From assembly GCA_041659765.1 (NCBI GenBank), contig JBAZXR010000001.1:182923-246922 (forward strand): a DNA stretch of 64,000 nt. The letters run 5' to 3'. Position numbers and translations under genes: made by a program. The notes below the pieces were generated by a model. It made no database searches and was not told the DNA's origin. It was given only the letters and a program-made list of their open reading frames with translations. Positions 5,795-60,722 of this stretch are shown one piece after another. This DNA is from Patescibacteria group bacterium (GTDB taxonomy: Bacteria; Patescibacteriota; Patescibacteriia; UBA9934). Numbering within the stretch: position 1 is the stretch's first letter; each line of letters begins with the position of its first letter.

Positions 5795-5824
5795 TAAAGT
5801 TTTGATAGGTAGTATTGCTGATTT

Positions 5825-5910
5825 GGGTAGATACTCAAGTGGTCAACGAGGGGAGACTGTAAATCTCCTGGAGCAATCCTTCGTAGGTTCGAATCCTGCT
5901 CTACCCACCA
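5825..5910 (+). tRNA. tRNA-Tyr (anticodon GTA), long variable arm, CCA encoded
   Basis: Acceptor GGGTAGA/TCTACCC, anticodon stem GGAGA/TCTCC with loop CTGTAAA, long variable arm, T-arm GTAGG-TTCGAAT-CCTGC. Confidence 0.8.
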
Positions 5911-5987
5911 AAGACCTCCTAGCAATAGGAGGTTTTTGTATATAAAGTCCGTGTATACTGTTGATAGTTAATTCTTTTCATTATTCT

Positions 5988-6194
5988 ATGCACGACGGAG
6001 GTATGTGCGGTTGTCCACATCACAAGTTGGTTCCGTTAATCATTGTGATAGTTGGTGTAGCCTTTTTGCTACAAACGCTTGGTGTTTTGACGGCGGCCAC
6101 GGTTAGCATGGTTTGGCCGATTGGCTTGATCATGATCGGACTGATGAAACTAAGCAGTGGCATGTGCGGCTGCTGTTCCATGAAGAAGAAGTAG
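5988..6194 (+). CDS. small Cys-rich two-TM membrane protein (MCGC...MCGCC termini)
   Basis: Track ORF 5961..6194 starts at TTG. In-frame ATG at 5988, or at 6004 with GGAGG just upstream. N-terminal MCGCPHH and C-terminal GMCGCCSMKKK flank two hydrophobic helices. Confidence 0.4.
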   Translation: MHDGGMCGCPHHKLVPLIIVIVGVAFLLQTLGVLTAATVSMVWPIGLIMIGLMKLSSGMCGCCSMKKK

Positions 6195-6195
6195 A

Positions 6196-6288
6196 GTGAG
6201 AAACCAAAAGCACGAAGTCTCGCTAAAATTTGAGTCGGGTTACCTCCTAAAAATTTTATCAAGACTTCGTGCTTTTGGTTTTAGGGAG
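6196..6288. repeat. long hairpin element (about 31-bp stem, 19-nt loop GAGTCGGGTTACCTCCTAA), copy 1
   Basis: Arm AAACCAAAAGCACGAAGTCTCGCTAAAATTT pairs with AAATTTTATCAAGACTTCGTGCTTTTGGTTT (2 mismatches). The loop is shared with the copy at 14461..14520. Sits between convergent genes. Confidence 0.6.
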
Positions 6289-6534
6289 TTACTTAGTCGC
6301 GCGGAAGCCGAACTGTGCACCGAAGATGGCTCCTAAGATGGCGCCGAAGATCATAGCGGCCATGCCCATTTGGCCAAGCCAGTGTTCCCAGAGGTTATTG
6401 TAGGGGACTGGGTCAATTGAGATGATCAAGGTTACAACAAAGGCAATGGCTAGACCCGCTGCCGCACCGATGAGTGAGCAGGTAACGGCGTAGCCAATAA
6501 TTGTGGCCAAATCCCGATTATTTTTTGAAGTCAT
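6289..6534 (-). CDS. small membrane protein, hypothetical
   Basis: 81 aa, two hydrophobic helices, glycine-zipper-like GAILGAIFGAQFG. Confidence 0.4.
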   Translation of the reverse strand: MTSKNNRDLATIIGYAVTCSLIGAAAGLAIAFVVTLIISIDPVPYNNLWEHWLGQMGMAAMIFGAILGAIFGAQFGFRATK

Positions 6535-6618
6535 AATGACTTAAGGATTAATTATTAATGTTATCACGCACCGAGCAGACATCTAAATACAGAGTATCCA
6601 ATTATAGCCAGCAAGTAA

Positions 6619-6653
6619 ATAAAACACGCCCAGGATTTTTCCGGGGCGTGTTT
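6619..6653 (-). terminator. intrinsic terminator downstream of the giant surface-protein gene
   Basis: AAAACACGCCC-cagga-tttttcc-GGGGCGTGTTTT palindrome. On the minus strand the hairpin is followed by TTTTATTT. Confidence 0.55.
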
Positions 6654-6661
6654 TAGATGGA

Positions 6662-16458: not shown

Positions 16459-17106
16459 TCACTCGGGCCAGTCTACAAGTTCGCCCATCCGTTTTTCAAT
16501 ATCGTCCGCTTTCCTGAGGCGGGCGATTTGATTTCTGTTCAAAATGGCTGAGTGAGGAATCTCGAGCAGATACTCGGGGATATACCAAATTGATTCCTCG
16601 CTCGTCTCCCAGCCCTGTTTGTCGAAGCGTGAGAGATCTATAGGTTTCGAAAATGCTCGCAGCGTTTTCGCTCTCGTCGATTGCAAAAAGTACTCGTGAA
16701 AATAACTCATCACGAGCTCGCGGATTGTTCTATACACGGGCTCCCGATACCGGAGAACGCCGTGATTTGTTTTGGAAATAGCACCCCAGTGACCATGAAT
16801 CTGATAAACGGCAAGCACGTGATCGTAATCGTTCTTGGTGGACTCGAGATCGACAATGAGCGGTGGAAAACCATTAGCCCTGAGCGCGGCGGCTGCGAAC
16901 ATAGCTCCCTCAATACACTGAGCGTTTCGTTCTTGGAGTACACGGCGTGGCGATAGGCAGGTGTCGTTATCGCCTAATACTCTGTACGTCAGTGTGTTTA
17001 CGAAGTCTTGAATTTTTGCTGGAGTCGTCAATGTTTCTAGAAGACGACGTTCGTCTGCGGTCCACGATGCCATACTCGATCTAGATTTTTTTATCAGTGA
17101 ATACAA
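16459..17106 (-). CDS. transglutaminase-like/papain-fold protein, putative
   Basis: NAQCIEGAMFAAAALRANGFP (Cys nucleophile context) followed by DYDHVLAVYQIHGHWGAI (His/Asp). Confidence 0.35.
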   Translation of the reverse strand: MYSLIKKSRSSMASWTADERRLLETLTTPAKIQDFVNTLTYRVLGDNDTCLSPRRVLQERNAQCIEGAMFAAAALRANGFPPLIVDLESTKNDYDHVLAVYQIHGHWGAISKTNHGVLRYREPVYRTIRELVMSYFHEYFLQSTRAKTLRAFSKPIDLSRFDKQGWETSEESIWYIPEYLLEIPHSAILNRNQIARLRKADDIEKRMGELVDWPE

Positions 17107-17674
17107 CGAGTCTTTCTGAATACTGTTTAGTAATTTTGTTCCAAACCCCGCCGCAAGTGATTAGATTTAAATGGGCTTGGCTGTCACTTGAAGTAAAGAC
17201 AGATGCGGCATCGGTAGCGGGGTCAAACTTTTTTACTTCTCGAACGATGAAAATTACTTTGGCGCCGGTTGCGTCTTCAATGATAACTTCTTGTCCGGGT
17301 TTTACTTTATACAGTCTTTTGAAGACGGCTGAGGATTCATTGAACCAGTTAACATGGCCGTCAATAACAGCGCTACCAATTTCACCCGGACGTGGACCGA
17401 GCTCGTACCAGGCCGCGTTCAAAGGGTTCTTTGGCACGTCCATGGCGCCTTGGGGCGTCAGGGCCACTTTCTCAATAGCCGCATTCACTCCGATGCTCGG
17501 AATGATAATGCGGTCAGATTTTTTGGTATTTTTTTCTGTAGCCACTTCCAAGGCTGGTTCTATCTGTACTGCGAGCGCTGGATCCGTGCTGGTTTTTACA
17601 GCGCGGGGTTCCGGAATTTTTAGAGCGGCAGCGTAAGAGAAAGCACCGTGATAAAGGAGAAGAGAGAAGAGCAC
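17081..17674 (-). CDS. sortase (canonical His-Cys-Arg)
   Basis: IPSIGVNAAIEKV, PGEIGSAVIDGHV (His), LNLITCGG (TLxTC Cys), SERLVVFT (Arg). Confidence 0.75.
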   Translation of the reverse strand: MLFSLLLYHGAFSYAAALKIPEPRAVKTSTDPALAVQIEPALEVATEKNTKKSDRIIIPSIGVNAAIEKVALTPQGAMDVPKNPLNAAWYELGPRPGEIGSAVIDGHVNWFNESSAVFKRLYKVKPGQEVIIEDATGAKVIFIVREVKKFDPATDAASVFTSSDSQAHLNLITCGGVWNKITKQYSERLVVFTDKKI

Positions 17675-17721: not shown

Positions 17722-19137
17722 TTAGGCCGTGCGTTTTTTTCGTAGGACGAAGAAGAGTGAGGCTGCAGAAAGGCCGGTAGCTAGGGCGCCCCAGACGAGT
17801 GTGTTTTCAGGAGGGGTGAAGCCGGTGTTTGGGAAGGTTGGAACTGCGCTAGCCACCACAACTGTAGCGACGGCCACGTCTCTCACGGTGTAGCCGTTTC
17901 CAGAGCCTGTAGCTGTAACTGTGTTGGTCGTGGTAGCGGTGAGGTTTGTTCTGCAGGTGTAGGTCCATGTTTCTGATGGATCAAGCAGGTTATCGCTATT
18001 GGTGTCTCCGGAGACAAATACTACCGGGGAGCATTTATCATCAGTTAGGTAGACGTTGCTGAGCGGTACCGTGCCTGGGTTGGTTACTCGTTTTGTGTAA
18101 GTTACCATTCCTCCGCCGAAGGGTAGAGTGAACGGAGCGGGGACTTTTGTGATGTGAATGAGGGGTGGAACTACTGGCGTACCTACTACTACCGTAGCGC
18201 TAGCAATGTCCACGGAGCTCAATCCATTAGCCCAGCCCGTGGCCACGACAGTGTTAGTGTGGGTTTCGGTTAGTGTTGTGGTGCAGGTGTGCACCCAGAC
18301 TTCACCAAGATCAAGCACGGAGTCTCTGTCGGTATCGCCAGACTGGAGAACGATGGGGCTGCAGGTGTCGCCTACGAGCGTGACGTTCGTCATTGGTACC
18401 GTGCCAATGTTTCTGGCTGTATAGGTGTAGGTGACTGAACCGGGGCCTAGTGGCAAAGAGAGTGGGCTTGGGACTTTTACTACATCAATAAGCGGTGGAA
18501 CGGGAGGGATGATGGCCGGTGAGCCGATGTCATTATTCGTAACGATGCAAAATAGATGTTCGGCAGCGTGTAAGTACATTACTCCATCTGCATCACAGTC
18601 GCCGGAAAATGAGGCCGTATAGCCTGCGCCGTTACTCTCGGTTACTTGGTATCGGGAAGAGTTCGCGACGTAGCTGTTGGTGGAGCCGGAGAGTACCTGG
18701 GTGCTGTTTACAAAAAGCGGGAAATCATCAAAGGTAGCAGTTCCGCCGTTATCGTTGATTACGTTTTTAACTACGTTGATAGTTCCGGTGTACTGGGTAG
18801 AGCCTTCGCTAGAGGTGGCGGCGCAGGTTGGTTCAGTGATTTGGTTGTTATCCATGGTCACCTGAGTAGCAGCCCAGGCCCGACCCTGTAGGGCTACGCC
18901 GGAAACGAATGAGATTAATCCGGTGTTTGTGATGATGGTTCCCTTGATGCTCCCAGCTGCGGCAAAGGTCATGGAAGTGGGAATTTGCCAATAAACATTA
19001 CAGGCCGTGGCACCACCGGTTAAAACCATGGTACCGCCGGCGGTCTGGGCAATACTTGAGGTGCTGCGGAATATATAAACGCCGGCACCGTTTAAGGTCA
19101 GGGTAGAGTTAAAAGCGGTGGCTGCTACGTCATACAT
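17722..19137 (-). CDS. cell-surface protein with two DUF11-type repeat domains and a C-terminal sorting signal (FPNTG + TM + KKRTA)
   Basis: Two ~100-aa repeats: VPSPLSLPLGPGSVTYTYTARNIGTVPMTNVTLVGDTCSP..., then VPAPFTLPFGGGMVTYTKRVTNPGTVPLSNVYLTDDKCSP.... C-terminus VPTFPNTGFTPPENTLVWGALATGLSAASLFFVLRKKRTA. Confidence 0.65.
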   Translation of the reverse strand: MYDVAATAFNSTLTLNGAGVYIFRSTSSIAQTAGGTMVLTGGATACNVYWQIPTSMTFAAAGSIKGTIITNTGLISFVSGVALQGRAWAATQVTMDNNQITEPTCAATSSEGSTQYTGTINVVKNVINDNGGTATFDDFPLFVNSTQVLSGSTNSYVANSSRYQVTESNGAGYTASFSGDCDADGVMYLHAAEHLFCIVTNNDIGSPAIIPPVPPLIDVVKVPSPLSLPLGPGSVTYTYTARNIGTVPMTNVTLVGDTCSPIVLQSGDTDRDSVLDLGEVWVHTCTTTLTETHTNTVVATGWANGLSSVDIASATVVVGTPVVPPLIHITKVPAPFTLPFGGGMVTYTKRVTNPGTVPLSNVYLTDDKCSPVVFVSGDTNSDNLLDPSETWTYTCRTNLTATTTNTVTATGSGNGYTVRDVAVATVVVASAVPTFPNTGFTPPENTLVWGALATGLSAASLFFVLRKKRTA

Positions 19138-51040: not shown

Positions 51041-54000
51041 ATGAAGAAAATTCTTATCATCTTGGGGGTGGCTGGATCAATGGCTATTTCCTTTTTGTTC
51101 CTCTTTAAGATTCCGTTGACCCACGCCGTTGCCTTCACGTGGGATGGCGGCGGTACAACTGATAACTGGAGTGATTGCGCTAACTGGGTGGGTGACGCTT
51201 GTCCAACGGCGAGCGACACGGTTGTTTTTGACGCTACTTCTGCCGCGGCGCCACATAATAATTCAACGATTGATGCTGGATTTGGCTCGGCTATTGGCGG
51301 GATCACCATCGCTACCGGGTATACTGGCACGATTACTCAGGGCACGGCCCTCACTATTGGTTCCGGCGGGTATACTGAGGCTTCGACAACGGGTACTTGG
51401 ACAGGCGGCTCGTCCGCCCTCACGATAAACGGTGCGTTCTCAATTACGGCCGGTGCCTACACACCAACCTCTGGTACTTGGACCTTGAATGGAAATTTTT
51501 CCATGACCGGCGGAACAATGGCCGGCACGGGTAAGACTTTGATCGTTAGTTCAAGTTTAAGCACGTTTACTTATACTGCCGGGACAGGGAACTTTAACGT
51601 CGGGCCAGGAGATACGGGCGTAGCTGTCACGATTAGTTCTAACAGTTCGGCTAAGACAATTAAAACCGGAACTACGCTTATCGCTACGATCAGCGGAGAC
51701 CCATACATGACTATTGAGGCTGGGGCGTCTCTCACGACTATTGGCGATTCCCTATATTATATCTTTACAAACAACGGTAGTTATACAAACGGAGCCGGTT
51801 ATTTTCGTGCTGAAAGTACAGCTACTTTCAGCGGTACTACAAATAATCTAGACGCAGCTACCGGGGTCCAGGTTGGTCTTGCTTTCTCCCCGAATGGACC
51901 ATTTACGATCGGTTCCGGTGCCACACTTACGCTGAACCCCGCGGTCACCACTCTTTATATTGGAGGTGCATACAATAACCAAGGAACATTTAATGTAAGC
52001 GGACGAACTCTTGAGTTTGATTCGGGTTACGGTGCCGGCCAAATCACCAATTATTACGGAGCGGTGAGTACTGGCGATTATTCGGCTCTTACTGGTGCCA
52101 GCGTTACAATCGGTAAGGCAGCGGGCGCAGCTTTTACTGTGCTTGCCAACCAAAGCATTACCGCTTCTACAGTAACAGGCGCCACTCCAAGTATAGTTGT
52201 AGATGCCTTAGGAACACTGACGACTACTGGTGATTTCAGAGTCCACAGACTAACTAACAACGGAAACTTTGTCATGGGTACTGCCGGTTTTTTTCATGCA
52301 GAACGTGGTGTTACCTTTGACGGCGCCACTAATGATTTGAGCAATGCTACGGACTTTCAGGTTGGTATGGCCTATAATCCACCGGAAAATATGGTTATTG
52401 GATCAGGTGATACGCTCACGCTGAATCCGGCCGTTACCACCCTTTATATTGCTGGTGCATTTGATAATAACGGCACTTTTAACATTTCTGGTCGAGTGCT
52501 TAATTTTGGCGCTAGCTGGGGTTCATCTGAAATCATGCACTATACGGGGGTCACTAATACTGGGGATTTTAATACTATCACTGGAGCGACCGTGGTTCTA
52601 GCTAAAACTGGTGGGTCATCATTTACGGTCCGTAACGGACAAACTATCGCCGCCTCCGATACCGGTTCTGGCTTTAATCTAGTCATTGATTCGGGCGGAA
52701 CGTTGAATACCACGGGGAATATTAACGTGTTTACTTTGACTAATAATGGCGCCTTTACAATGGTCGGTTCCGGAACGTTCGTATCAACTAACGGTTCTAC
52801 TTTAAACGGCACGGTTAATGATTTTACTAATGCGACATCAATGAACATTGCGACTGGCTATAATCCGGCGGGGTTGTTTTCTATCGGTTCAGGTAAGACT
52901 GTTCTCTTTGGCGGATCGGGAATCACTGTCGGCGGAAGTTTTACAAATAGTGGAACGCTTACTTCTACCGCACCGATGACATTTGCTAGCGGGTATGGCA
53001 ATTGCACGCTCACTACTGGCGAGGCTTTTGGTGGGGGCATCATCGTGAATAAGGGTTCTGGTCAGAGTGTTATTCTGGCCCAAAACACCGTAGTCAATGG
53101 CGACGTTACTATCACCGCCGGTGTACTTGATGTTTCTGCTTCTAACTATAGTTTGACCGTGGGCGGGAATTGGTCCAACAGCGCAACGTTTACGCCTCGG
53201 TCTGGAACGGTAACCTTGAACGGGACTGACCAGAGCGTCACCGGAAACACCACTTTCTATAATCTTACAAAAACGGTAACCGTGGCCCGGACTCTAACCT
53301 TTGCCGCTAGCTCAACAACGACTATTTCAAACACCCTCACGCTCCAAGGCGCAGTTGGTCAGAGACTTTCACTTCGGAGCTCGACGCCAGCAACTCAAGC
53401 GAACATCAATCCGCAGGGAACTCGCGTTTTAGCTTCGCTGGACGTGAAGGACAACAATAATACAAACGTTACCCAAATGTCCTGTATAGATGATTGTTTT
53501 GATAGCGGCAACAATACCAATTGGTTCTTGAGCGCCGCTGTGCCTGGTGTAACTCTCGTCGAGAGTGCTAGTTCGACGGATGTTACGGAAGGTGGAGCGA
53601 CGGACACATATTCTGCGGTTTTAGATAAATTGCCGACTGCCAACGTGGTGGTCACGGCTACTGGCAATGCCGATGCTACAGTCAGCGGCCCGCTAACATT
53701 TACCACGGTTAATTGGGCCACACCACAGACTTTTACGGTTACAGCTGTGAACGATTTGATCGATGAAACGAGTCCGGAGAATGCCGCAATTACTCATGCT
53801 GTGACCTCGGCTGATCTGGGTTATGACGGACTTTCAGTGGCGAGCGTTACTGCTCATGTAACTGATAATGACACCGCTGGCGTCACGGTTGGCGCGATCT
53901 CTGGCCACACCACTGAGTTGCTTGGCACGGCGACGTTTACCGTTGTTCTCGACACTCAGCCAACTGCCGATGTTGCTATTGGTGTAACCTCCGACAACAC

Positions 54001-55387
54001 AGCCGAGGGCACTGTATCCGCAGCATCGCTAACCTTTACAAGTGTGAACTGGGCTACTCCGCAGACGATTACGGTTACTGGAGTTAATGATTCTATTGAT
54101 GACGGTAACATTACCTATCACATTGTTCTGGCTACAGCCTCCTCCGCTGACTTAATTTATAACGTTATCAATCCCGCTGACGTAACCGTCATCAATGACG
54201 ATAATGACACTGTAGGAAACTCAGTAGTTGAATCTGCCGGGACAACGGACGTAACGGAGGGCGGAGCAACGGATTCCTACACGATCGTTCTGCTCACTGA
54301 GCCAGTGACAAATGTAACGGTTACGGTATTTCCCGACGTCCAGGTAGAGGTTGATTCGTCCAGTGTTATTTTTACTACGCTCAACTGGAACGTTCCGCAG
54401 ACAATAACTGTGACTGCAGCTAATGACGCCGTCGTTGAGGGTAATCACACGGGTACCATTACGCATACAGCATCTTCTGCCGATCCTCTCTATAACGGTA
54501 TCGCTATCGCGTCTGTCGTGGCTAATGTCACGGACAATGATAGGGCTGGTTCCTCTGGTTATTCTCCGCCACAGATCGTTATTCGCCCACCAACCATCAA
54601 TGTTATTGCTCCAGTCGAGGCGGATCGTCTTCTGGGTGGCCAGCCTTACCTCATCACTTGGAGTACAGGCGGAGAGTATGTGAATTATGCCGACATCTCT
54701 TATTCAATTGATGGAGGTTGGAACTATACTCTCGTGGAACAGGGCGTTAGAAATTCCGGAAGTTATCAGTGGGCGGTGCCAAATATCAGCACATCGTCAG
54801 CTATAGTAAAAGTTGCTCTAACTGATTTGACAACGCAGGCCGTAACGGGAACTTCCGGGGTATTTACCATTCAGATTCCTCCCGAACCAGTCATTGAGAC
54901 CCCGCCAACTCCAAACGTCGATGTTCCGTCTGTTCCTATATTTCCGGAAGGGGTAACTCCGGTTACGACTGGGGAGTATATTCGGTCTTCGTCCTATACC
55001 ACCGTGTATCTTGTTGAGCCGGGTCTAACTCGTCGTCCGTTTGCTAACCCTCAAATATTCCACACCTATCAATCGACGTTCGACAACGTACGGGTAGTTA
55101 CGGACGCTACATTGTCGTTTCTTGCTTTGGGGTCTCCTATGCCTCCGAAGCCTGGCGTTGTTCTAGTGAAGGTTCAGACATCTCCGAAGGTTTCTTCGGT
55201 GGCGGATGAGGGCGTTATTCACCATATTCCGAATGAAGATATGGCCGCCAGTCTTTTTGGCAGTAGCTGGGCAGATTATGTGATTGATATTCCTTCAACG
55301 CTCATGAACGAGCTTAACGAAGGCACACCGATGACTGGAGATGAGGTTATCGATAGATCGATTCTAAGGCGCCGGATTGAGCTTTGA
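51041..55387 (+). CDS. giant surface protein (1448 aa): beta-helix-like N-terminal repeats, Ig-like middle repeats, shared C-terminal ~125-aa domain
   Basis: Signal peptide. Repeated ~140-aa units (...TLNPAVTTLYIGGAYNNQGTFNVSGRTLEF...). About 5 repeats of the form VTEGGATDxYxxVL...PTAxVxV...LTFTxVNWxxPQTxTVTxVNDxxDE. C-terminus TTVYLVEPGLTRRPF...SSWADYVIDIPST. Confidence 0.75.
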   Translation: MKKILIILGVAGSMAISFLFLFKIPLTHAVAFTWDGGGTTDNWSDCANWVGDACPTASDTVVFDATSAAAPHNNSTIDAGFGSAIGGITIATGYTGTITQGTALTIGSGGYTEASTTGTWTGGSSALTINGAFSITAGAYTPTSGTWTLNGNFSMTGGTMAGTGKTLIVSSSLSTFTYTAGTGNFNVGPGDTGVAVTISSNSSAKTIKTGTTLIATISGDPYMTIEAGASLTTIGDSLYYIFTNNGSYTNGAGYFRAESTATFSGTTNNLDAATGVQVGLAFSPNGPFTIGSGATLTLNPAVTTLYIGGAYNNQGTFNVSGRTLEFDSGYGAGQITNYYGAVSTGDYSALTGASVTIGKAAGAAFTVLANQSITASTVTGATPSIVVDALGTLTTTGDFRVHRLTNNGNFVMGTAGFFHAERGVTFDGATNDLSNATDFQVGMAYNPPENMVIGSGDTLTLNPAVTTLYIAGAFDNNGTFNISGRVLNFGASWGSSEIMHYTGVTNTGDFNTITGATVVLAKTGGSSFTVRNGQTIAASDTGSGFNLVIDSGGTLNTTGNINVFTLTNNGAFTMVGSGTFVSTNGSTLNGTVNDFTNATSMNIATGYNPAGLFSIGSGKTVLFGGSGITVGGSFTNSGTLTSTAPMTFASGYGNCTLTTGEAFGGGIIVNKGSGQSVILAQNTVVNGDVTITAGVLDVSASNYSLTVGGNWSNSATFTPRSGTVTLNGTDQSVTGNTTFYNLTKTVTVARTLTFAASSTTTISNTLTLQGAVGQRLSLRSSTPATQANINPQGTRVLASLDVKDNNNTNVTQMSCIDDCFDSGNNTNWFLSAAVPGVTLVESASSTDVTEGGATDTYSAVLDKLPTANVVVTATGNADATVSGPLTFTTVNWATPQTFTVTAVNDLIDETSPENAAITHAVTSADLGYDGLSVASVTAHVTDNDTAGVTVGAISGHTTELLGTATFTVVLDTQPTADVAIGVTSDNTAEGTVSAASLTFTSVNWATPQTITVTGVNDSIDDGNITYHIVLATASSADLIYNVINPADVTVINDDNDTVGNSVVESAGTTDVTEGGATDSYTIVLLTEPVTNVTVTVFPDVQVEVDSSSVIFTTLNWNVPQTITVTAANDAVVEGNHTGTITHTASSADPLYNGIAIASVVANVTDNDRAGSSGYSPPQIVIRPPTINVIAPVEADRLLGGQPYLITWSTGGEYVNYADISYSIDGGWNYTLVEQGVRNSGSYQWAVPNISTSSAIVKVALTDLTTQAVTGTSGVFTIQIPPEPVIETPPTPNVDVPSVPIFPEGVTPVTTGEYIRSSSYTTVYLVEPGLTRRPFANPQIFHTYQSTFDNVRVVTDATLSFLALGSPMPPKPGVVLVKVQTSPKVSSVADEGVIHHIPNEDMAASLFGSSWADYVIDIPSTLMNELNEGTPMTGDEVIDRSILRRRIEL

Positions 55388-55411
55388 TTAGCTCCCCAAA
55401 AAAAATTCCGG

Positions 55412-55445
55412 GATATATTTCCCGGGATTTTAGTTTCAGTTATTT
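55412..55445 (+). terminator. intrinsic terminator after the 1448-aa gene
   Basis: TTCCGGGAtatatTTCCCGGGATTTTAGTTT. Confidence 0.55.
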
Positions 55446-55670
55446 TGCAACTGCACTGAAAATATCGGTTGTCGTCAGACCCTCGCTTTCGGCTGGATTT
55501 ATTAATAAAAATCATGTTATCATTGGGCACATCGTAATGGTTTGTTAGACAGTTTTGGTGACTTACATTAAGCTATTGCTTTCTATCCTTACTGTTCTAT
55601 GCAATTCATCCAGGGGCTCATTTCAGCTGCACGACGCGCAACAAGAAAATTCAATAAAAAAGGTAGCGGG

Positions 55671-58600
55671 ATGGCCAGGTCATTTTTGGCTCCTACCGCC
55701 TTCATTGTGTTATTTTTATATACTACGTCCATCTTGACGCAGACTATTTCTGTTGACGCTGCGGACTCTAACCTTGATCTCGTTCCGTTCCGGTTGTCGG
55801 GATCAATGACCAATGACGTTACAAGCCAGTCTGGAGCAGGTGCTTTTGCAAACGGAAGTTTGCGGGGCTATTCAGAAGCCGCTTGTATTCCTTTTGTATT
55901 GTCGCTTGAAAATACGAATGACAGTGCAGGAAATATTGTCGCTCAAATTCAGCATGACTATTCAGCAACCGGTGAAGCCTTTACTCAACTGGAGAATATC
56001 ACCTCCCTTTTGCCAAACCCTCTTCTGGCGGATGATTTGAATGACTTTGTGTATGCCGGGACACAGCTTTCTAACGGAACAACCGTTGGTGGCGCGCTGA
56101 CCGTGAGTGTTTCTGGTCCAGTTTCTAATAATAATGATTCGAAGCGTACTTATAGTATTACGGCAAATGGCGTTCCAGCTCAGACAACAGTGCAGGTGGT
56201 CTTTTGTGCCAGATTAGGTGTTGACGCTAGTGCAGCTAACGGTGCCAGCTTGGATGTTCGTTTTTCGAATGGTGGCGCTCAGCCGTCAGGGGTGAATCCT
56301 AATGACGTGGTCCAGCTTCCTTCGCTGACGATCACTAAAATTGTGTCTGGTGGCACCGCTCAGCCATCCGACTGGTCATTTACGGTTACTCCGGGCATTG
56401 ATGGCATTTCAGCATCTAGTGTAGTTAATATTCCGGCCAACCAGTCATCTGTTGTGCTTGATAATGTTCGAGCAAATGGCACGCAGGCCTTCACGGTGAC
56501 TGAAGGTGCCGGACCTTCTGGATATGCCTTTTCAAGCGGATCGGGAACGAACTGCGTCTTTAGTGGTGCGACCGCCACCGCAACGGTGACGGCTGATTTT
56601 ACGGGCGTCAATGCCTCTTGTGCCTTCACTAACGCTCAATTGACGCAGCCTCAGCTGACTATCATTAAACAGGTGGTGAACGATAACGGTGGCACCGCGG
56701 TGGCTGCGAATTTCTCCTTTGAGGTTACTGCTAATAATCCTTCATCAGCGTTTGTGTCTGGTTCGGAGACCGGCATTACTATTACTCTTGATCCAGGTGC
56801 TTATTCAGTGGCTGAAATAGCCAATATTGGTTACTCTGATTCACCTAGCGCTGATTGTTCGGGCACTATTGCTTACGGGGAAGCCAAGACCTGTACTATC
56901 ACGAACAACGATATCCCTGGCACCCTGACGGTCATTAAACAGGTAGATAACACGGCTGGCGGGACCATGAGTTCAAAAGATTTTTTAATGACCGTGACCG
57001 GATCATTCCCAAACTCAGTTCAGTCAACTCAATCATTTGAGGGGTCATTGTTTGGTACTTTGGTGCAGATGAATGCTGGTGCGTATTCGGTTGACGAGAG
57101 CTTGGCGGTGAATTATTCCGGTCAGAAGAGCGCTGATTGTTCAGGCACTATTTCTAACGGTGAAGCTAAGACCTGTACTATCACTAACACCTACGCGGTT
57201 CCTTCGCCAACTCAGGGTACGATCATCGTGCAGAAGCATGTGGTCAACGACAGCGGATTCGGCACTAAGGTAGCAGCGGATTTCATGCTGGAAGTTCGTG
57301 ATACGCATGGCGCCGTAATTCCGGTCACTGGTGATGAGGCCGGGGTATCTGTCTTGGTTGATCCGGGTCAGTACGCGGTTTCTGAAGCTATAGATCCAGC
57401 CTATGCTCAATCATTCGGCGCAGGTTGTGCTGGTAGCATTGCGGTTGGCGAAACCCGAATTTGTGTAGTGACGAATGACGATCGCCCGGCTCTTTTGCCA
57501 ACCCAGGACATCTTGCCTTCTGTACAATGCGTCGCTCCAACCAACCACAATACTTACATTGCTTACTTCGGCTTCAACAACACAAACCAGACCGCTGTCT
57601 ATCTGCCCATTGGTGCAGATAACTCAGTGACCGGGGGAGGATTGCAGGGCAATAGCTATGGTCAGCCAGAGATCTTTGCCGCTGGTGCTTCAGCCGCCTA
57701 CCCTGATGCTGCATTTTCAGTTGAGTTTGATGGCACGCCAGTAACCTGGGCATTAACTGTGGCTAACGACATGACCCCAGCTACCGCGTCATCTTCTAGC
57801 GAGGCCTGTCCAACGATTGAGCCTGCGCGGCTGCACGTTTTCGGTATCATCACTAACGATAATGGCGGTCCAACCCTAAACGTTTATGAGACGGCATCGA
57901 CCTTGCAGAGTGCAGGCCCGAACCAAACATTTGAGAACGATAATGATGGGGTGTGGCTAACTGTTAATCCTGGAACCTACAGCTTAACTTCTTCTGATGA
58001 AGCTGGATACGTAGTTTCATACAGCCCAGACTGTGTGGGTAGTATTGTTCAGGGTGAGACTAAGATTTGTACTGTCACGTATGACGATCTGCCAGGCGAA
58101 AATGAAGATGGCTTTATTCGCGTCACTAAAGTCATCACCAACTATACTTCTGAGGAAGTTCTAGTGACTGATTTCGTGCTCAATGTTCGCACCTCCAGAA
58201 TTAGACGAACCTCGATTCGTGGTACAGATGTAGACTCTGGAGTTGAGAATGCTTTTGCACCTGAGACTTATCAGATCAGCGAAACACCGGCTGAAAGTCA
58301 GACTTTCACCGCTGAGGATTACACAGCAGTATTCTCTGGCGACTGTTCAGACGCTGGCGTCATTGTGGTAGAAAGCGGTCAACACTATTCCTGTACCATC
58401 ACAAACACTTTCGGTACTGCGCCAACTAGCGGTGGCGGGGGAGGTGGAAATGGTGGTGGGGGCGGCGGTGGAGGAGGAGGTATGACTCGGACTACTGGCG
58501 TCACTGTGATCACCAATGTGATCAATAACAACGGTGGCAGCTTGTTAGCTCCGTCCTTTGAGGCCCACGTTAATGGTGAAGATCCTGCACTGACCTCAAC

Positions 58601-59015
58601 GTTTAACATGTCAGCCATTTCCACGATCAGCTTTGCTGGCAACACTGGCGGGGTAAACGTGGCTTTATCAGCTGGTTCATATACGGTCACACAGACCAAC
58701 TCATCCGGGTATGCAGTTACTATGAGCGCTGGTTGTTCCGGTACGCTTATCACGGGCCAAGTTGCTACTTGTATCATCACCAATGATGATCTAGCGGCCG
58801 CAGCTGTAACTCCTGTTCCAATTCCGGCGCCAACTCCGCTTGTGCTTGGCGATACTGATACGGCTGATAACGCGGTAGTTTTGCCTACGCCCACCCCAGA
58901 GGTTTTGGGCGCTACTGACGAAGAATTGCCACGCACTGGATTCCCAGTAGGCATGTTGGTAGTCTGGATTGGCGGTGCGGCATATGTCGCTTCAAGAGCT
59001 AGTAAAAAACAATAA
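55671..59015 (+). CDS. giant LPxTG-anchored surface protein with about 8 tandem ~105-aa beta-sandwich repeats and a poly-Gly linker
   Basis: Track ORF from 55599; ATG 55671 gives signal peptide MARSFLAPTAFIVLFLYTTSILTQTISVDAA. Repeats end ...DCSGTIxxGExKTCTITNxDxPGxLxVxKxVxND. C-terminus EELPRTGFPVGMLVVWIGGAAYVASRASKKQ. Confidence 0.75.
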   Translation: MARSFLAPTAFIVLFLYTTSILTQTISVDAADSNLDLVPFRLSGSMTNDVTSQSGAGAFANGSLRGYSEAACIPFVLSLENTNDSAGNIVAQIQHDYSATGEAFTQLENITSLLPNPLLADDLNDFVYAGTQLSNGTTVGGALTVSVSGPVSNNNDSKRTYSITANGVPAQTTVQVVFCARLGVDASAANGASLDVRFSNGGAQPSGVNPNDVVQLPSLTITKIVSGGTAQPSDWSFTVTPGIDGISASSVVNIPANQSSVVLDNVRANGTQAFTVTEGAGPSGYAFSSGSGTNCVFSGATATATVTADFTGVNASCAFTNAQLTQPQLTIIKQVVNDNGGTAVAANFSFEVTANNPSSAFVSGSETGITITLDPGAYSVAEIANIGYSDSPSADCSGTIAYGEAKTCTITNNDIPGTLTVIKQVDNTAGGTMSSKDFLMTVTGSFPNSVQSTQSFEGSLFGTLVQMNAGAYSVDESLAVNYSGQKSADCSGTISNGEAKTCTITNTYAVPSPTQGTIIVQKHVVNDSGFGTKVAADFMLEVRDTHGAVIPVTGDEAGVSVLVDPGQYAVSEAIDPAYAQSFGAGCAGSIAVGETRICVVTNDDRPALLPTQDILPSVQCVAPTNHNTYIAYFGFNNTNQTAVYLPIGADNSVTGGGLQGNSYGQPEIFAAGASAAYPDAAFSVEFDGTPVTWALTVANDMTPATASSSSEACPTIEPARLHVFGIITNDNGGPTLNVYETASTLQSAGPNQTFENDNDGVWLTVNPGTYSLTSSDEAGYVVSYSPDCVGSIVQGETKICTVTYDDLPGENEDGFIRVTKVITNYTSEEVLVTDFVLNVRTSRIRRTSIRGTDVDSGVENAFAPETYQISETPAESQTFTAEDYTAVFSGDCSDAGVIVVESGQHYSCTITNTFGTAPTSGGGGGGNGGGGGGGGGGMTRTTGVTVITNVINNNGGSLLAPSFEAHVNGEDPALTSTFNMSAISTISFAGNTGGVNVALSAGSYTVTQTNSSGYAVTMSAGCSGTLITGQVATCIITNDDLAAAAVTPVPIPAPTPLVLGDTDTADNAVVLPTPTPEVLGATDEELPRTGFPVGMLVVWIGGAAYVASRASKKQ

Positions 59016-59604
59016 GCATTGGGGAAGAAGCATCCTGATTTTCTTCGGGGTGCTTTTTCTTTCGCTGTTCATCGCGGAAGTGGATTATGCCTTTAAGAAT
59101 TTGAAGGTCTTTTTTATCCGAGAAATGGCCAATGAAGTGTCGGTCGAGGACTCGCTCCAAGTTTTATACGTCCCCGATACGCTTAGCATTCCGTCGCTGC
59201 AGATTTCTGCACCGATTATCTACATCACTAAAAAGGGCGAGGGTGCTTATTCCGAAGCCCTGGCCAGAGGCGTAGTCCATTATCCGGGTACGGCCATGCC
59301 GGGTGAGTTTGGCAACGTCTACATTTTCGGTCACTCTAGTGACTTGCCGTGGTCAATCGGCCAATACAAAACCATCTTTGCTCCTTTGCCGCAAATTCAG
59401 AACGGCGAAAAAATTACCTTGACCGATCACGCTGGCCGGCAGTTTGTCTATGAAGTTTTTGAGACTAAGGTAGTCATGCCCAATGATCTGTCAGTGTTAA
59501 GCCAATACGAATTTAAAGAAAAGCTACTCTCCGTTCAGACTTCTTACCCGCTTGGAACCGCTCTTAAACGGTTTATAGTGCTAGCCAGACTGCTTGAAGA
59601 CTAG
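58984..59604 (+). CDS. sortase-family homolog with Ser in place of the catalytic Cys (TLxTC becomes VQTSYP)
   Basis: Aligns with the canonical sortase at 17081: IPSLQISAPIIYI, ALARGVVHYPGTAMPGEFGNVYIFGHS (His kept), LLSVQTSYPLG (Cys to Ser, codon TCT), ALKRFIV (Arg kept). Overlaps the 3' end of the LPRTG gene. Confidence 0.6.
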   Translation: MSLQELVKNNKHWGRSILIFFGVLFLSLFIAEVDYAFKNLKVFFIREMANEVSVEDSLQVLYVPDTLSIPSLQISAPIIYITKKGEGAYSEALARGVVHYPGTAMPGEFGNVYIFGHSSDLPWSIGQYKTIFAPLPQIQNGEKITLTDHAGRQFVYEVFETKVVMPNDLSVLSQYEFKEKLLSVQTSYPLGTALKRFIVLARLLED

Positions 59605-60722
59605 ATAGCCATGAGAATGATAGCAATGCCGATGACTCCAAGCACGTGAGCGGCGAGCGGCAGACGACGCCAGTGCATTTTGGCAATAAGAGTAATGAGG
59701 AGCAGAGAAGAAAGAAAGATGATGGCGATTAAATAGACTTTGGTCACGGAATCATTCAGGCCGCCAAGTTTTATTCCGAAAACCTTTGCTTCTGGCTGGC
59801 TGCTGCCAAAGGCGTATAGGTCTTGCGTAGTTGAGGTTGGGGCAATGATGGCTGCTGACTCTACTTTTTGTTCATTGTTGTCTGAGGCGATCACCATTAA
59901 TTCCTGTCCAGAATTTGGGATCGTCTTGGTGTTGACCGGAACCGAACCAGTCCATTCGCCGGCGACTGATTTTTTCAGCGGGACAGAGACAGTACCCAGC
60001 TGGGCCGAGACCGCAGTAGCTTCGGTATTTTTTACGGAGATGTGATACGAAGCTTTGGCGGGGGTTACAACTGTTGTTTCGATTGGAAGAGGCTCCTCGG
60101 TTGGCTTGTTTAGTCGCGTCTGGTCCGAGAGTACTGCGGCCACAACTACCGGCTCACCAAAGTGTTGAACCACAAAAATAGCTGGATACCCGTTGTATTC
60201 TCCCTGCGCAACTCCTACGCCGATATCCGTGTAGCGGGTGTCTACTATGTTCGCGCGGTGGGTGGGACTGGCCATCCAGCCGGCGGTTACGTCTTCAGCT
60301 TGGGTGAAGTAAACGGCCAGGTTTTCGCCGGCGTTCTGATAGTAATAGCCCTGTCCCTTGATCCATGACCATGGCGTTACTCCGTCCGGCGAAGTATGGG
60401 CAAAGTACTGATGGGCGAGCATGTCTTCTGCTTTTGCTTGGGCAGATGCGTCGAGCCTGTAATTTTCGACGAGTTGGGTGAGGCTGAGGCTCGTTCTCGA
60501 TGAGTTAGTCAACGAGATGATGTTATTTGGAGTGATCGCCGACGAATATAGACTTGCGGCCGGTAGGGCGATAGCGGTTGCTAAAACAACAAATTTGAGT
60601 CCCACCATTCCCACAGAATACCCAAAAAGCGCCCCATGGCTCAAGACATGCGGGGTGTGCTTGTTCCCGTGGTGCGGGACAAAGTGGTTTTTCAAAAACC
60701 CTTTTATTCCTTTGCTTTTCAC
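59601..60722 (-). CDS. CAP/SCP/PR-1 domain membrane protein
   Basis: CAP motifs AHQYFAHTSPDG, YQNAGENLA, MASPTHRANIVD...IGVGVA. N- and C-terminal TM helices. Confidence 0.6.
   Translation of the reverse strand: MKSKGIKGFLKNHFVPHHGNKHTPHVLSHGALFGYSVGMVGLKFVVLATAIALPAASLYSSAITPNNIISLTNSSRTSLSLTQLVENYRLDASAQAKAEDMLAHQYFAHTSPDGVTPWSWIKGQGYYYQNAGENLAVYFTQAEDVTAGWMASPTHRANIVDTRYTDIGVGVAQGEYNGYPAIFVVQHFGEPVVVAAVLSDQTRLNKPTEEPLPIETTVVTPAKASYHISVKNTEATAVSAQLGTVSVPLKKSVAGEWTGSVPVNTKTIPNSGQELMVIASDNNEQKVESAAIIAPTSTTQDLYAFGSSQPEAKVFGIKLGGLNDSVTKVYLIAIIFLSSLLLITLIAKMHWRRLPLAAHVLGVIGIAIILMAI

Follow-up and report, generated by a model that had tools for sequence, protein, structure and literature searches.

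By definition and classification, sortases are cysteine transpeptidases (MEROPS C60), and mechanistic work, inhibitor design and protein engineering ("sortagging") all rest on their thiol. Can the same fold be operated with a hydroxyl instead? The question is raised by a 64,000-nt stretch of contig JBAZXR010000001.1 from a Patescibacteria group bacterium (the window; all coordinates are positions in it), wherein a gene for a large surface protein ending in an LPRTG sorting signal (the cargo) is directly followed by that of a sortase homolog with a serine at the nucleophile position (the Ser-sortase; residue numbers are those of its 206-aa form). An earlier note on this DNA, made from the letters alone, had offered two readings of the protein: a serine-based transpeptidase variant or a catalytically dead pseudo-sortase kept next to a genuine substrate. 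Both find support, but the invariance of the catalytic residues, the pairing with the cargo and an unrelaxed sequence constraint favor the first: as judged from sequence comparisons, the protein is probably a catalytically active Ser-His-Arg sortase dedicated to its LPRTG cargo.

The assignment to the family comes from profile searches, in which the Ser-sortase scores 82.2 bits against the Pfam Sortase model PF04203 (E 3.4e-23; cut-off 26.6) and 45.1 bits against the general sortase model TIGR01076 (cut-off 39.35). Against the NCBIfam class models (A–F and GN), however, its scores stay far short of each cut-off: the best are those for class D (61.5 bits against a cut-off of 140 and 59.3 against 165), the others including class E (44.2/160), class C (42/160), class F (31.2/166) and class GN (29.6/158), and neither Pfam nor NCBIfam holds a model specific to the clade described below. 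In HMMER alignments to solved sortases, Ser187 lies under the catalytic Cys and Arg196 in the Arg column; the query segment LLSVQTSYPLGTALKRFIV is aligned with LLTLVTCTPLGINTHRILL of the Actinomyces oris SrtC2 (8t28), and the alignment with the Clostridium perfringens SrtD (4d70) likewise puts Ser187 at the catalytic Cys. The family-defining Cys (TLxTC, end of beta7) is thus absent from the aligned position, as had been surmised from the motif LLSVQTSYP and its TCT codon. The earlier note had arrived there through a block-by-block alignment with a canonical Cys sortase encoded elsewhere in the window. That alignment holds by way of the profiles but not by direct BLASTP, which covers residues 47–166 (26% identity, E 9e-7) and stops before the Cys and Arg blocks; since it spans only the N-terminal two-thirds of the protein, it cannot place the Ser on its own, and the profile and Protein Data Bank (PDB) alignments were used instead. 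An AlphaFold2 model (57-sequence alignment; mean predicted local distance difference test (pLDDT) 89.8; predicted template modeling score (pTM) 0.80) has strands 110–116 ending at His117, 180–186 ending at Ser187 and 196–203 beginning with Arg196, and this predicted placement at beta4, beta7 and beta8 is the arrangement of the sortase triad. In a Foldseek comparison with the PDB every top match is a sortase (class C, D, A or E; E ~1e-11). The hydrophobic N-terminal segment falls within a long helix (residues 11–49) of the model, and the catalytic domain would accordingly be extracytoplasmic and held to the membrane by its N-terminus.

The most mundane alternative is that TCT is a sequencing or assembly error for TGT or TGC, Cys and Ser codons being one base apart, or else that the gene is a decaying pseudogene. 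The open reading frame (ORF), however, is intact, and an independent Logan assembly of run SRR18595301 matches the window without a difference across 4999 bases, the TCT codon included, which settles the check for a miscalled Cys codon that the earlier note had proposed. A word-indexed search with the Ser-sortase returned 626 matches, the best 120 of which all carry Ser, down to 44% identity, within the motif LQTSYP[LVI]GTA.[KQR]R. A profile was also run exhaustively against 1.84 billion cluster representatives; 13,388 sortase-like proteins passed E <= 1e-3, of which 880 passed E <= 1e-30. When both searches are pooled, the nucleophile column holds Ser in 230 sequences and Cys in 28; the former constitute a clade with the signature LQTSYPxGTAxxR, drawn from many samples, in which the Ser is found in 230 of 230 members. 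Among 84 genes of this clade, it is encoded by TCT in 29, TCC in 21, TCG in 18, TCA in 14 and AGC in 2, i.e., by five codons from both Ser codon families, indicating that the residue has been maintained through synonymous turnover. Together, the invariant Ser, the five codons and the independent assembly refute an error or a pseudogene, the probability of which is vanishingly small. The scale of the phenomenon was, if anything, underestimated at first: rather than a peculiarity of one gene, it is a Patescibacteria-wide clade of at least 230 sequence clusters, encountered solely in metagenome-assembled genomes that bear a Patescibacteria name or resemble such genomes.

Beyond the nucleophile, His117 (motif FGHS) is retained in all 263 of the 263 pooled sequences and Arg196 (motif ALKRFIV) in 256 of 257, bearing out the conservation first read from the single protein, and Thr directly precedes the nucleophile (T186) in 97%. 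These figures bear on the chief rival explanation, which sees a dead but specific binder of the LPRTG signal—a holdase, a retention or positioning factor or a regulator—with cleavage performed by a Cys sortase elsewhere, here the class F-like enzyme of the window. Such an enzyme is indeed present in the same genome, a binder would conserve substrate-binding features too, and tight gene pairing would suit a dedicated partner of any kind. However, a binder needs no invariant hydroxyl, His and Arg, and it would tolerate Ala, Thr or Gly at the Ser position, none of which is seen at that column in the 230 Ser-clade members. Pseudoenzymes usually let their catalytic residues drift; in the Ser-sortases neither catalytic drift nor relaxed constraint is found, and only the Cys has changed, to an invariant Ser. 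Compared pairwise among representatives at 50% identity, catalytic domains of the Ser clade (110 sequences) show a mean identity of 0.478 and those of the sister clade of Cys enzymes (28 sequences) one of 0.471, so that constraint in the former is not relaxed. The Cys sortase of the window is, moreover, paired with its own, different FPNTG cargo, as the earlier note had recognized, and no Cys sortase was found within 6 kb of any of the 80 Ser-sortase loci of the context scan described below. A displaced thiol was also sought in the 230 Ser-clade catalytic domains: 199 of them lack any Cys and no column has one in more than 10% of the sequences, whereby a compensating Cys elsewhere in the domain was rejected. 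Taken together, a dead binder appears unlikely, though it is the strongest of the competing explanations.

The origin of the Ser clade can be approached through the 28 Cys sequences, which first appear below ~186 bits in the profile ranking. They carry GHSS[DNGY] and L[MI]TC[WTV]P.GT..R, family features that identify them as the closest ordinary sortases. In a neighbor-joining tree of the catalytic domain they form one pure clade, and the distribution of Ser and Cys on this tree is consistent with a single Cys-to-Ser switch. The nearest relatives of the Ser-sortases are this unnamed Cys-type Patescibacteria clade (e.g., P0220, P0228 and P0237), followed by classes D, C and E. The two clades are ~41% identical in the catalytic domain and alike in the architecture of the N-terminal anchor; the positions that they have in common include N111, the G116-H117-S118-S119 block, Y156, T186 immediately before the nucleophile, P189 and G191 of the P-x-G-T turn that follows it, and R196. 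The sister clade differs in its Cys nucleophile, in a hydrophobic residue rather than Gln two positions before it, and in lacking an adjacent LPxTG cargo at the five loci sampled. Conversely, Tyr113, Pro136, Gln185, Tyr188 and Ala193 are each found in at least 90% of the Ser clade but seldom in the Cys clade. Gln185 stands out, being present in 229 of the 230 Ser-clade members, as against Met, Ile, Val or Phe in the Cys clade; because it lies two residues before Ser187 on the same beta-strand, strand alternation makes it face the same side. It may have co-evolved as a helper that acts on the oxyanion or orients the Ser hydroxyl.

The second line of evidence is the cargo. Its gene shares 32 nt with that of the Ser-sortase (58984–59015), an overlap that the earlier note had seen correctly, although the product has 1114 aa instead of the 1100 given there; an alternative ATG lies at 55599, and an independent gene call on an identical contig gives the 1114-aa product, which corresponds to the start at 55671. 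The earlier boundaries of the Ser-sortase ORF likewise stand, whereas its length of 211 aa is attained only from an upstream TTG; the 206-aa form from the ATG is used both by an independent gene call and by a 100% identical database entry (P0001, 'MAG: sortase [Patescibacteria group bacterium]', in which MAG denotes a metagenome-assembled genome). The cargo has three SpaA_2 prealbumin-like domains (Pfam, 103.9 bits) along with a weak match to DUF7601, and at least five prealbumin/SpaA-like repeats can be discerned, each ending in C-x-G-x-[IL]-x-x-G-[EQ]-x-x-x-C-x-[IV]-[TV]-[NY]. Its C-terminus, with LPRTG, hydrophobic helix and RASKKQ just as first noted, has by sequence all the parts of a complete tripartite sorting signal.

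To what extent this pairing is general can be gauged from a scan for gene context with two clade motifs in one genome per GTDB species, which found a relative in 157 genomes and from which 80 loci were kept; being biased toward the Ser motif by construction, it was used for context only. All 157 are Patescibacteria-type MAGs by naming or gene content, the named groups including Doudnabacteria, Uhrbacteria, Kerfeldbacteria, Veblenbacteria, Yanofskybacteria and Paceibacter, with many labeled Saccharibacteria. Several entries (L001, L004, L013, L025, L026, L031, L048, L051, L066, L079 and P0076) bear the label 'uncultured Gammaproteobacteria', 'Candidatus Binatia' or 'Verrucomicrobiae' in the databases; these contigs are probably mislabeled or mis-binned MAGs, the surroundings of the module resembling those of Patescibacteria loci. 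With the window counted, 60 of the 81 loci have, immediately upstream and in the same orientation, an ORF whose product closes with LPxTG, a hydrophobic segment and a K/R tail. The motif in these 60 cargo proteins is LPRTG in 52, LPVTG in 5 and LPKTG, LPTTG and LPDTG in one each, within the consensus P-x-V-L-G-A-x-T-E-LPRTG-x-P. The x of LPxTG is therefore Arg in 87%, while in canonical LPXTG signals that position is variable, and a [VIL][LAK]G box precedes LPxTG by 5–8 residues in 54 of the 60; to our knowledge, no upstream VLGA box has been described on LPXTG signals. The bodies of the cargo proteins, in contrast, range from 200 to 1680 aa with varied immunoglobulin (Ig)-like modules, e.g., SpaA_2/4, SdrD-B, DUF11, InlB-B repeats and DUF642: what is conserved in the cargo is the sorting signal, not the passenger. 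When sortase columns were searched for co-variation with LPRTG as against LPVTG, LPKTG or LPTTG, none discriminated in a non-Arg sample of only 8 loci. At two loci (L008, at 5815–7063, and L059) a second, tandem-duplicated Ser-sortase gene was observed.

A subgroup without adjacent cargo shows a different setting, with the gene order ftsW–murG–Ser-sortase–murC, verified with Pfam in L007 (918–5088) and laid out alike in L008, L022, L043, L046, L062 and L070. This position in the dcw cluster suggests a cell-wall-linked housekeeping role for the subgroup. It is also pertinent to a further rival, namely that Ser187 is a nucleophile but water resolves the ester, making the protein a serine endopeptidase—a sheddase that releases or matures the cargo without anchoring it. 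The evidence for a catalytic Ser serves this reading as well as it serves a transpeptidase, and sortases such as SrtA do hydrolyze their substrates when no amine nucleophile is available. However, the cargo keeps a full tripartite anchoring signal, it carries Ig-like adhesin repeats of the kind usual in wall-anchored proteins, and the ftsW–murG–murC subgroup points to peptidoglycan as the acceptor, making a pure endopeptidase quite improbable.

Several observations do weigh against an active serine transpeptidase. No adjacent cargo is present at 21 of the 81 loci, and the Cys sortase in the same genome, 41 kb away, could in principle do the chemistry. A search for an acidic partner confined to the Ser clade was negative: D120 of the GHSSD motif is shared with some of the Cys sister clade and hence provides no Ser-specific compensation, for which reason a Ser-His-Asp triad built on a clade-specific acidic residue was rejected. 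Finally, the account in PMC4827206, citing its ref. 26, gives a dramatically reduced activity for the C184S mutant of the Staphylococcus aureus SrtA. Such near-inactivity, as described there, favors a pseudo-sortase and implies that a bare Cys-to-Ser swap is insufficient, so that an active Ser-sortase has to be assumed to carry compensating changes. On the other side of the ledger, the papain-like peptidases include families with a natural, conserved Cys-to-Ser replacement, rare and poorly explored (PMC10318531), a precedent for one fold with either nucleophile that makes a serine sortase chemically plausible, even though that fold is unrelated to the sortases. The active enzyme is favored here because Ser, His and Arg are invariant, constraint is not relaxed, no alternative Cys is available, cargo and sortase are paired, and one subgroup resides in the dcw cluster.

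The broader proposition, which still seems somewhat favored, is that these proteins represent the first natural serine-nucleophile sortases: a distinct Patescibacteria-wide class, with a Ser-His-Arg triad and a co-evolved Gln at −2, which recognizes an extended VLGAxTE-LPRTG signal and anchors the large adhesin-like proteins at the surface of these ultrasmall and probably host-attached cells. Under this scheme, the Ser-sortase would be held in the membrane by its N-terminal helix, facing outside, where it would dock the VLGAxTE-LPRTG signal, helix and K/R tail of the protein encoded directly upstream, the latter being retained meanwhile by its own helix and charged tail. Ser187, activated by His117, would attack the bond between Thr and Gly, and an acyl-(oxy)ester intermediate would form, with Arg196 and probably the clade-specific Gln185 stabilizing the substrate or the oxyanion. 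An amine, most likely that of a peptidoglycan precursor, would then resolve the intermediate, so that the SpaA-like adhesin would end up joined to the cell wall by a covalent bond. What we infer from the conservation and context described above is that the protein is catalytically active, where it cleaves, what Gln185 contributes and which acceptor is used.

How such an enzyme would compare with known systems may be considered next. Among solved structures, the best sequence and fold matches are sortases of classes D, C and E (4d70, 8t28 and 5go5, the last being the Streptomyces SrtE), which share with the Ser-sortase the beta-barrel, the positions of His and Arg and an LPxTG-type substrate encoded nearby, but which are all Cys enzymes. 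The pilin-polymerizing sortases of class C act on YPK-bearing cargo amid several pilin genes; neither YPK nor YP[KR] was found in the cargo of the window, and a single cargo gene lies upstream, on which grounds a pilus polymerase was rejected. The S. aureus sortase A (His120-Cys184-Arg197) has the same triad positions, a Thr before the nucleophile, a signal of LPxTG, helix and charged tail and the form of a membrane-anchored type II protein; it differs in its thiol nucleophile and in being a general housekeeping enzyme not tied to one cargo. A parallel might also be drawn with the transpeptidases of peptidoglycan synthesis, wherein Ser-based DD- and Cys-based LD-enzymes carry out one type of reaction on either nucleophile, albeit in unrelated folds. 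A search of open-access papers and preprints returned nothing relevant on serine or Cys-replaced sortases, or on sortases in the candidate phyla radiation (CPR), Patescibacteria or Parcubacteria.

If it is true that a conserved serine version exists in nature, the sortase fold would support oxy-ester chemistry, and Gln185, Tyr188 and Tyr113 would be pointers to the compensating residues that the inactive engineered C184S lacks. It could also yield ligases with LPRTG specificity that are insensitive to oxidation and thiol reagents. The automatic annotation 'sortase' would then hide a change of catalytic type in the genes of the Ser clade. The surface biology of Patescibacteria is almost unexplored, and large surface proteins would be displayed in these organisms by a dedicated module of cargo and sortase, in some cases joined by a CAP-domain partner and in others located in the dcw cluster.

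Table 1. Features of the cargo-sortase locus and of the second sortase-cargo pair in the window.
Feature	Position	Strand	Remarks
Ser-sortase gene	58984 (ATG)..59604	+	206 aa
Alternative Ser-sortase start, TTG	58969	+	211 aa
N-terminal membrane anchor of Ser-sortase, residues ~16–31, SILIFFGVLFLSLFIA	59029..59076	+	hydrophobic segment, read from sequence
H117-S118-S119-D120 (GHSSD; motif FGHSSD)	59332..59343	+	catalytic His117 = CAC 59332–59334, end of beta4
Q185-T186-S187-Y188 (motif LLSVQTSYP)	59536..59547	+	Ser187 = TCT 59542–59544, nucleophile position, end of beta7
Arg196 (CGG; motif ALKRFIV)	59569..59571	+	conserved sortase Arg, start of beta8
Cargo gene	55671..59015	+	1114 aa, surface protein, N-terminal signal-like hydrophobic segment
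Extended sorting motif PEVLGATDEE-LPRTG	58896..58940	+	LPRTG itself 58926–58940
Hydrophobic helix FPVGMLVVWIGGAAYVA, positive tail SRASKKQ and stop	58941..59015	+	cargo C-terminus
Cargo LPRTG sorting-signal stretch, as peptide			PEVLGATDEELPRTGFPVG
Terminator-like hairpin, 12 bp stem	55402..55431	+	3' of the preceding 1448-aa gene, upstream boundary of the cargo-sortase unit
CAP/SCP/PR-1 domain (PF00188) membrane protein	59601..60722	-	373 aa; convergent, abuts Ser-sortase 3' end
Cys sortase (LNLITCGG)	17081..17674	-	closest to class F, 121 bits, under the 166-bit cut-off
FPNTG cargo	17722..19137	-	471 aa; ice-binding-like domain, DUF7507/DUF11 repeats; ends FPNTG + helix + RKKRTA

The CAP-domain gene at the 3' end of the Ser-sortase gene (Table 1) has counterparts elsewhere: by tblastn, a CAP-domain protein is encoded near the Ser-sortase at 21 of the 80 loci (among them L001, L010, L011, L016, L018, L020, L026, L027, L049, L051 and L056). 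In 11 cases it lies immediately downstream in convergent orientation, in one directly upstream of the sortase, and in 6 loci 3.7–4.7 kb upstream on the same strand, just past the cargo gene. The CAP-domain protein may thus be a third component of the cargo-sortase module.

As for the other neighbors, the gene preceding the hairpin (51041..55387, + strand) codes for a product of 1448 aa that has a signal-like segment at its N-terminus and neither a sorting signal nor any match in Pfam; relatives of this protein were detected at only 2 of the 80 Ser-sortase loci. A 189-aa antisense ORF with a poly-Pro run (58385..58954, − strand) is no gene but a reading-frame artifact, since it mirrors the Gly run GGGGGGNGGGGGGGGGG in the cargo gene. 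In a few members of the family, the Ser-sortase domain is found in a longer polypeptide: it makes up the C-terminal part of P0128 (517 aa), P0131 (673 aa), P0139 (919 aa) and P0077 (355 aa, PF04203 with PF18884).

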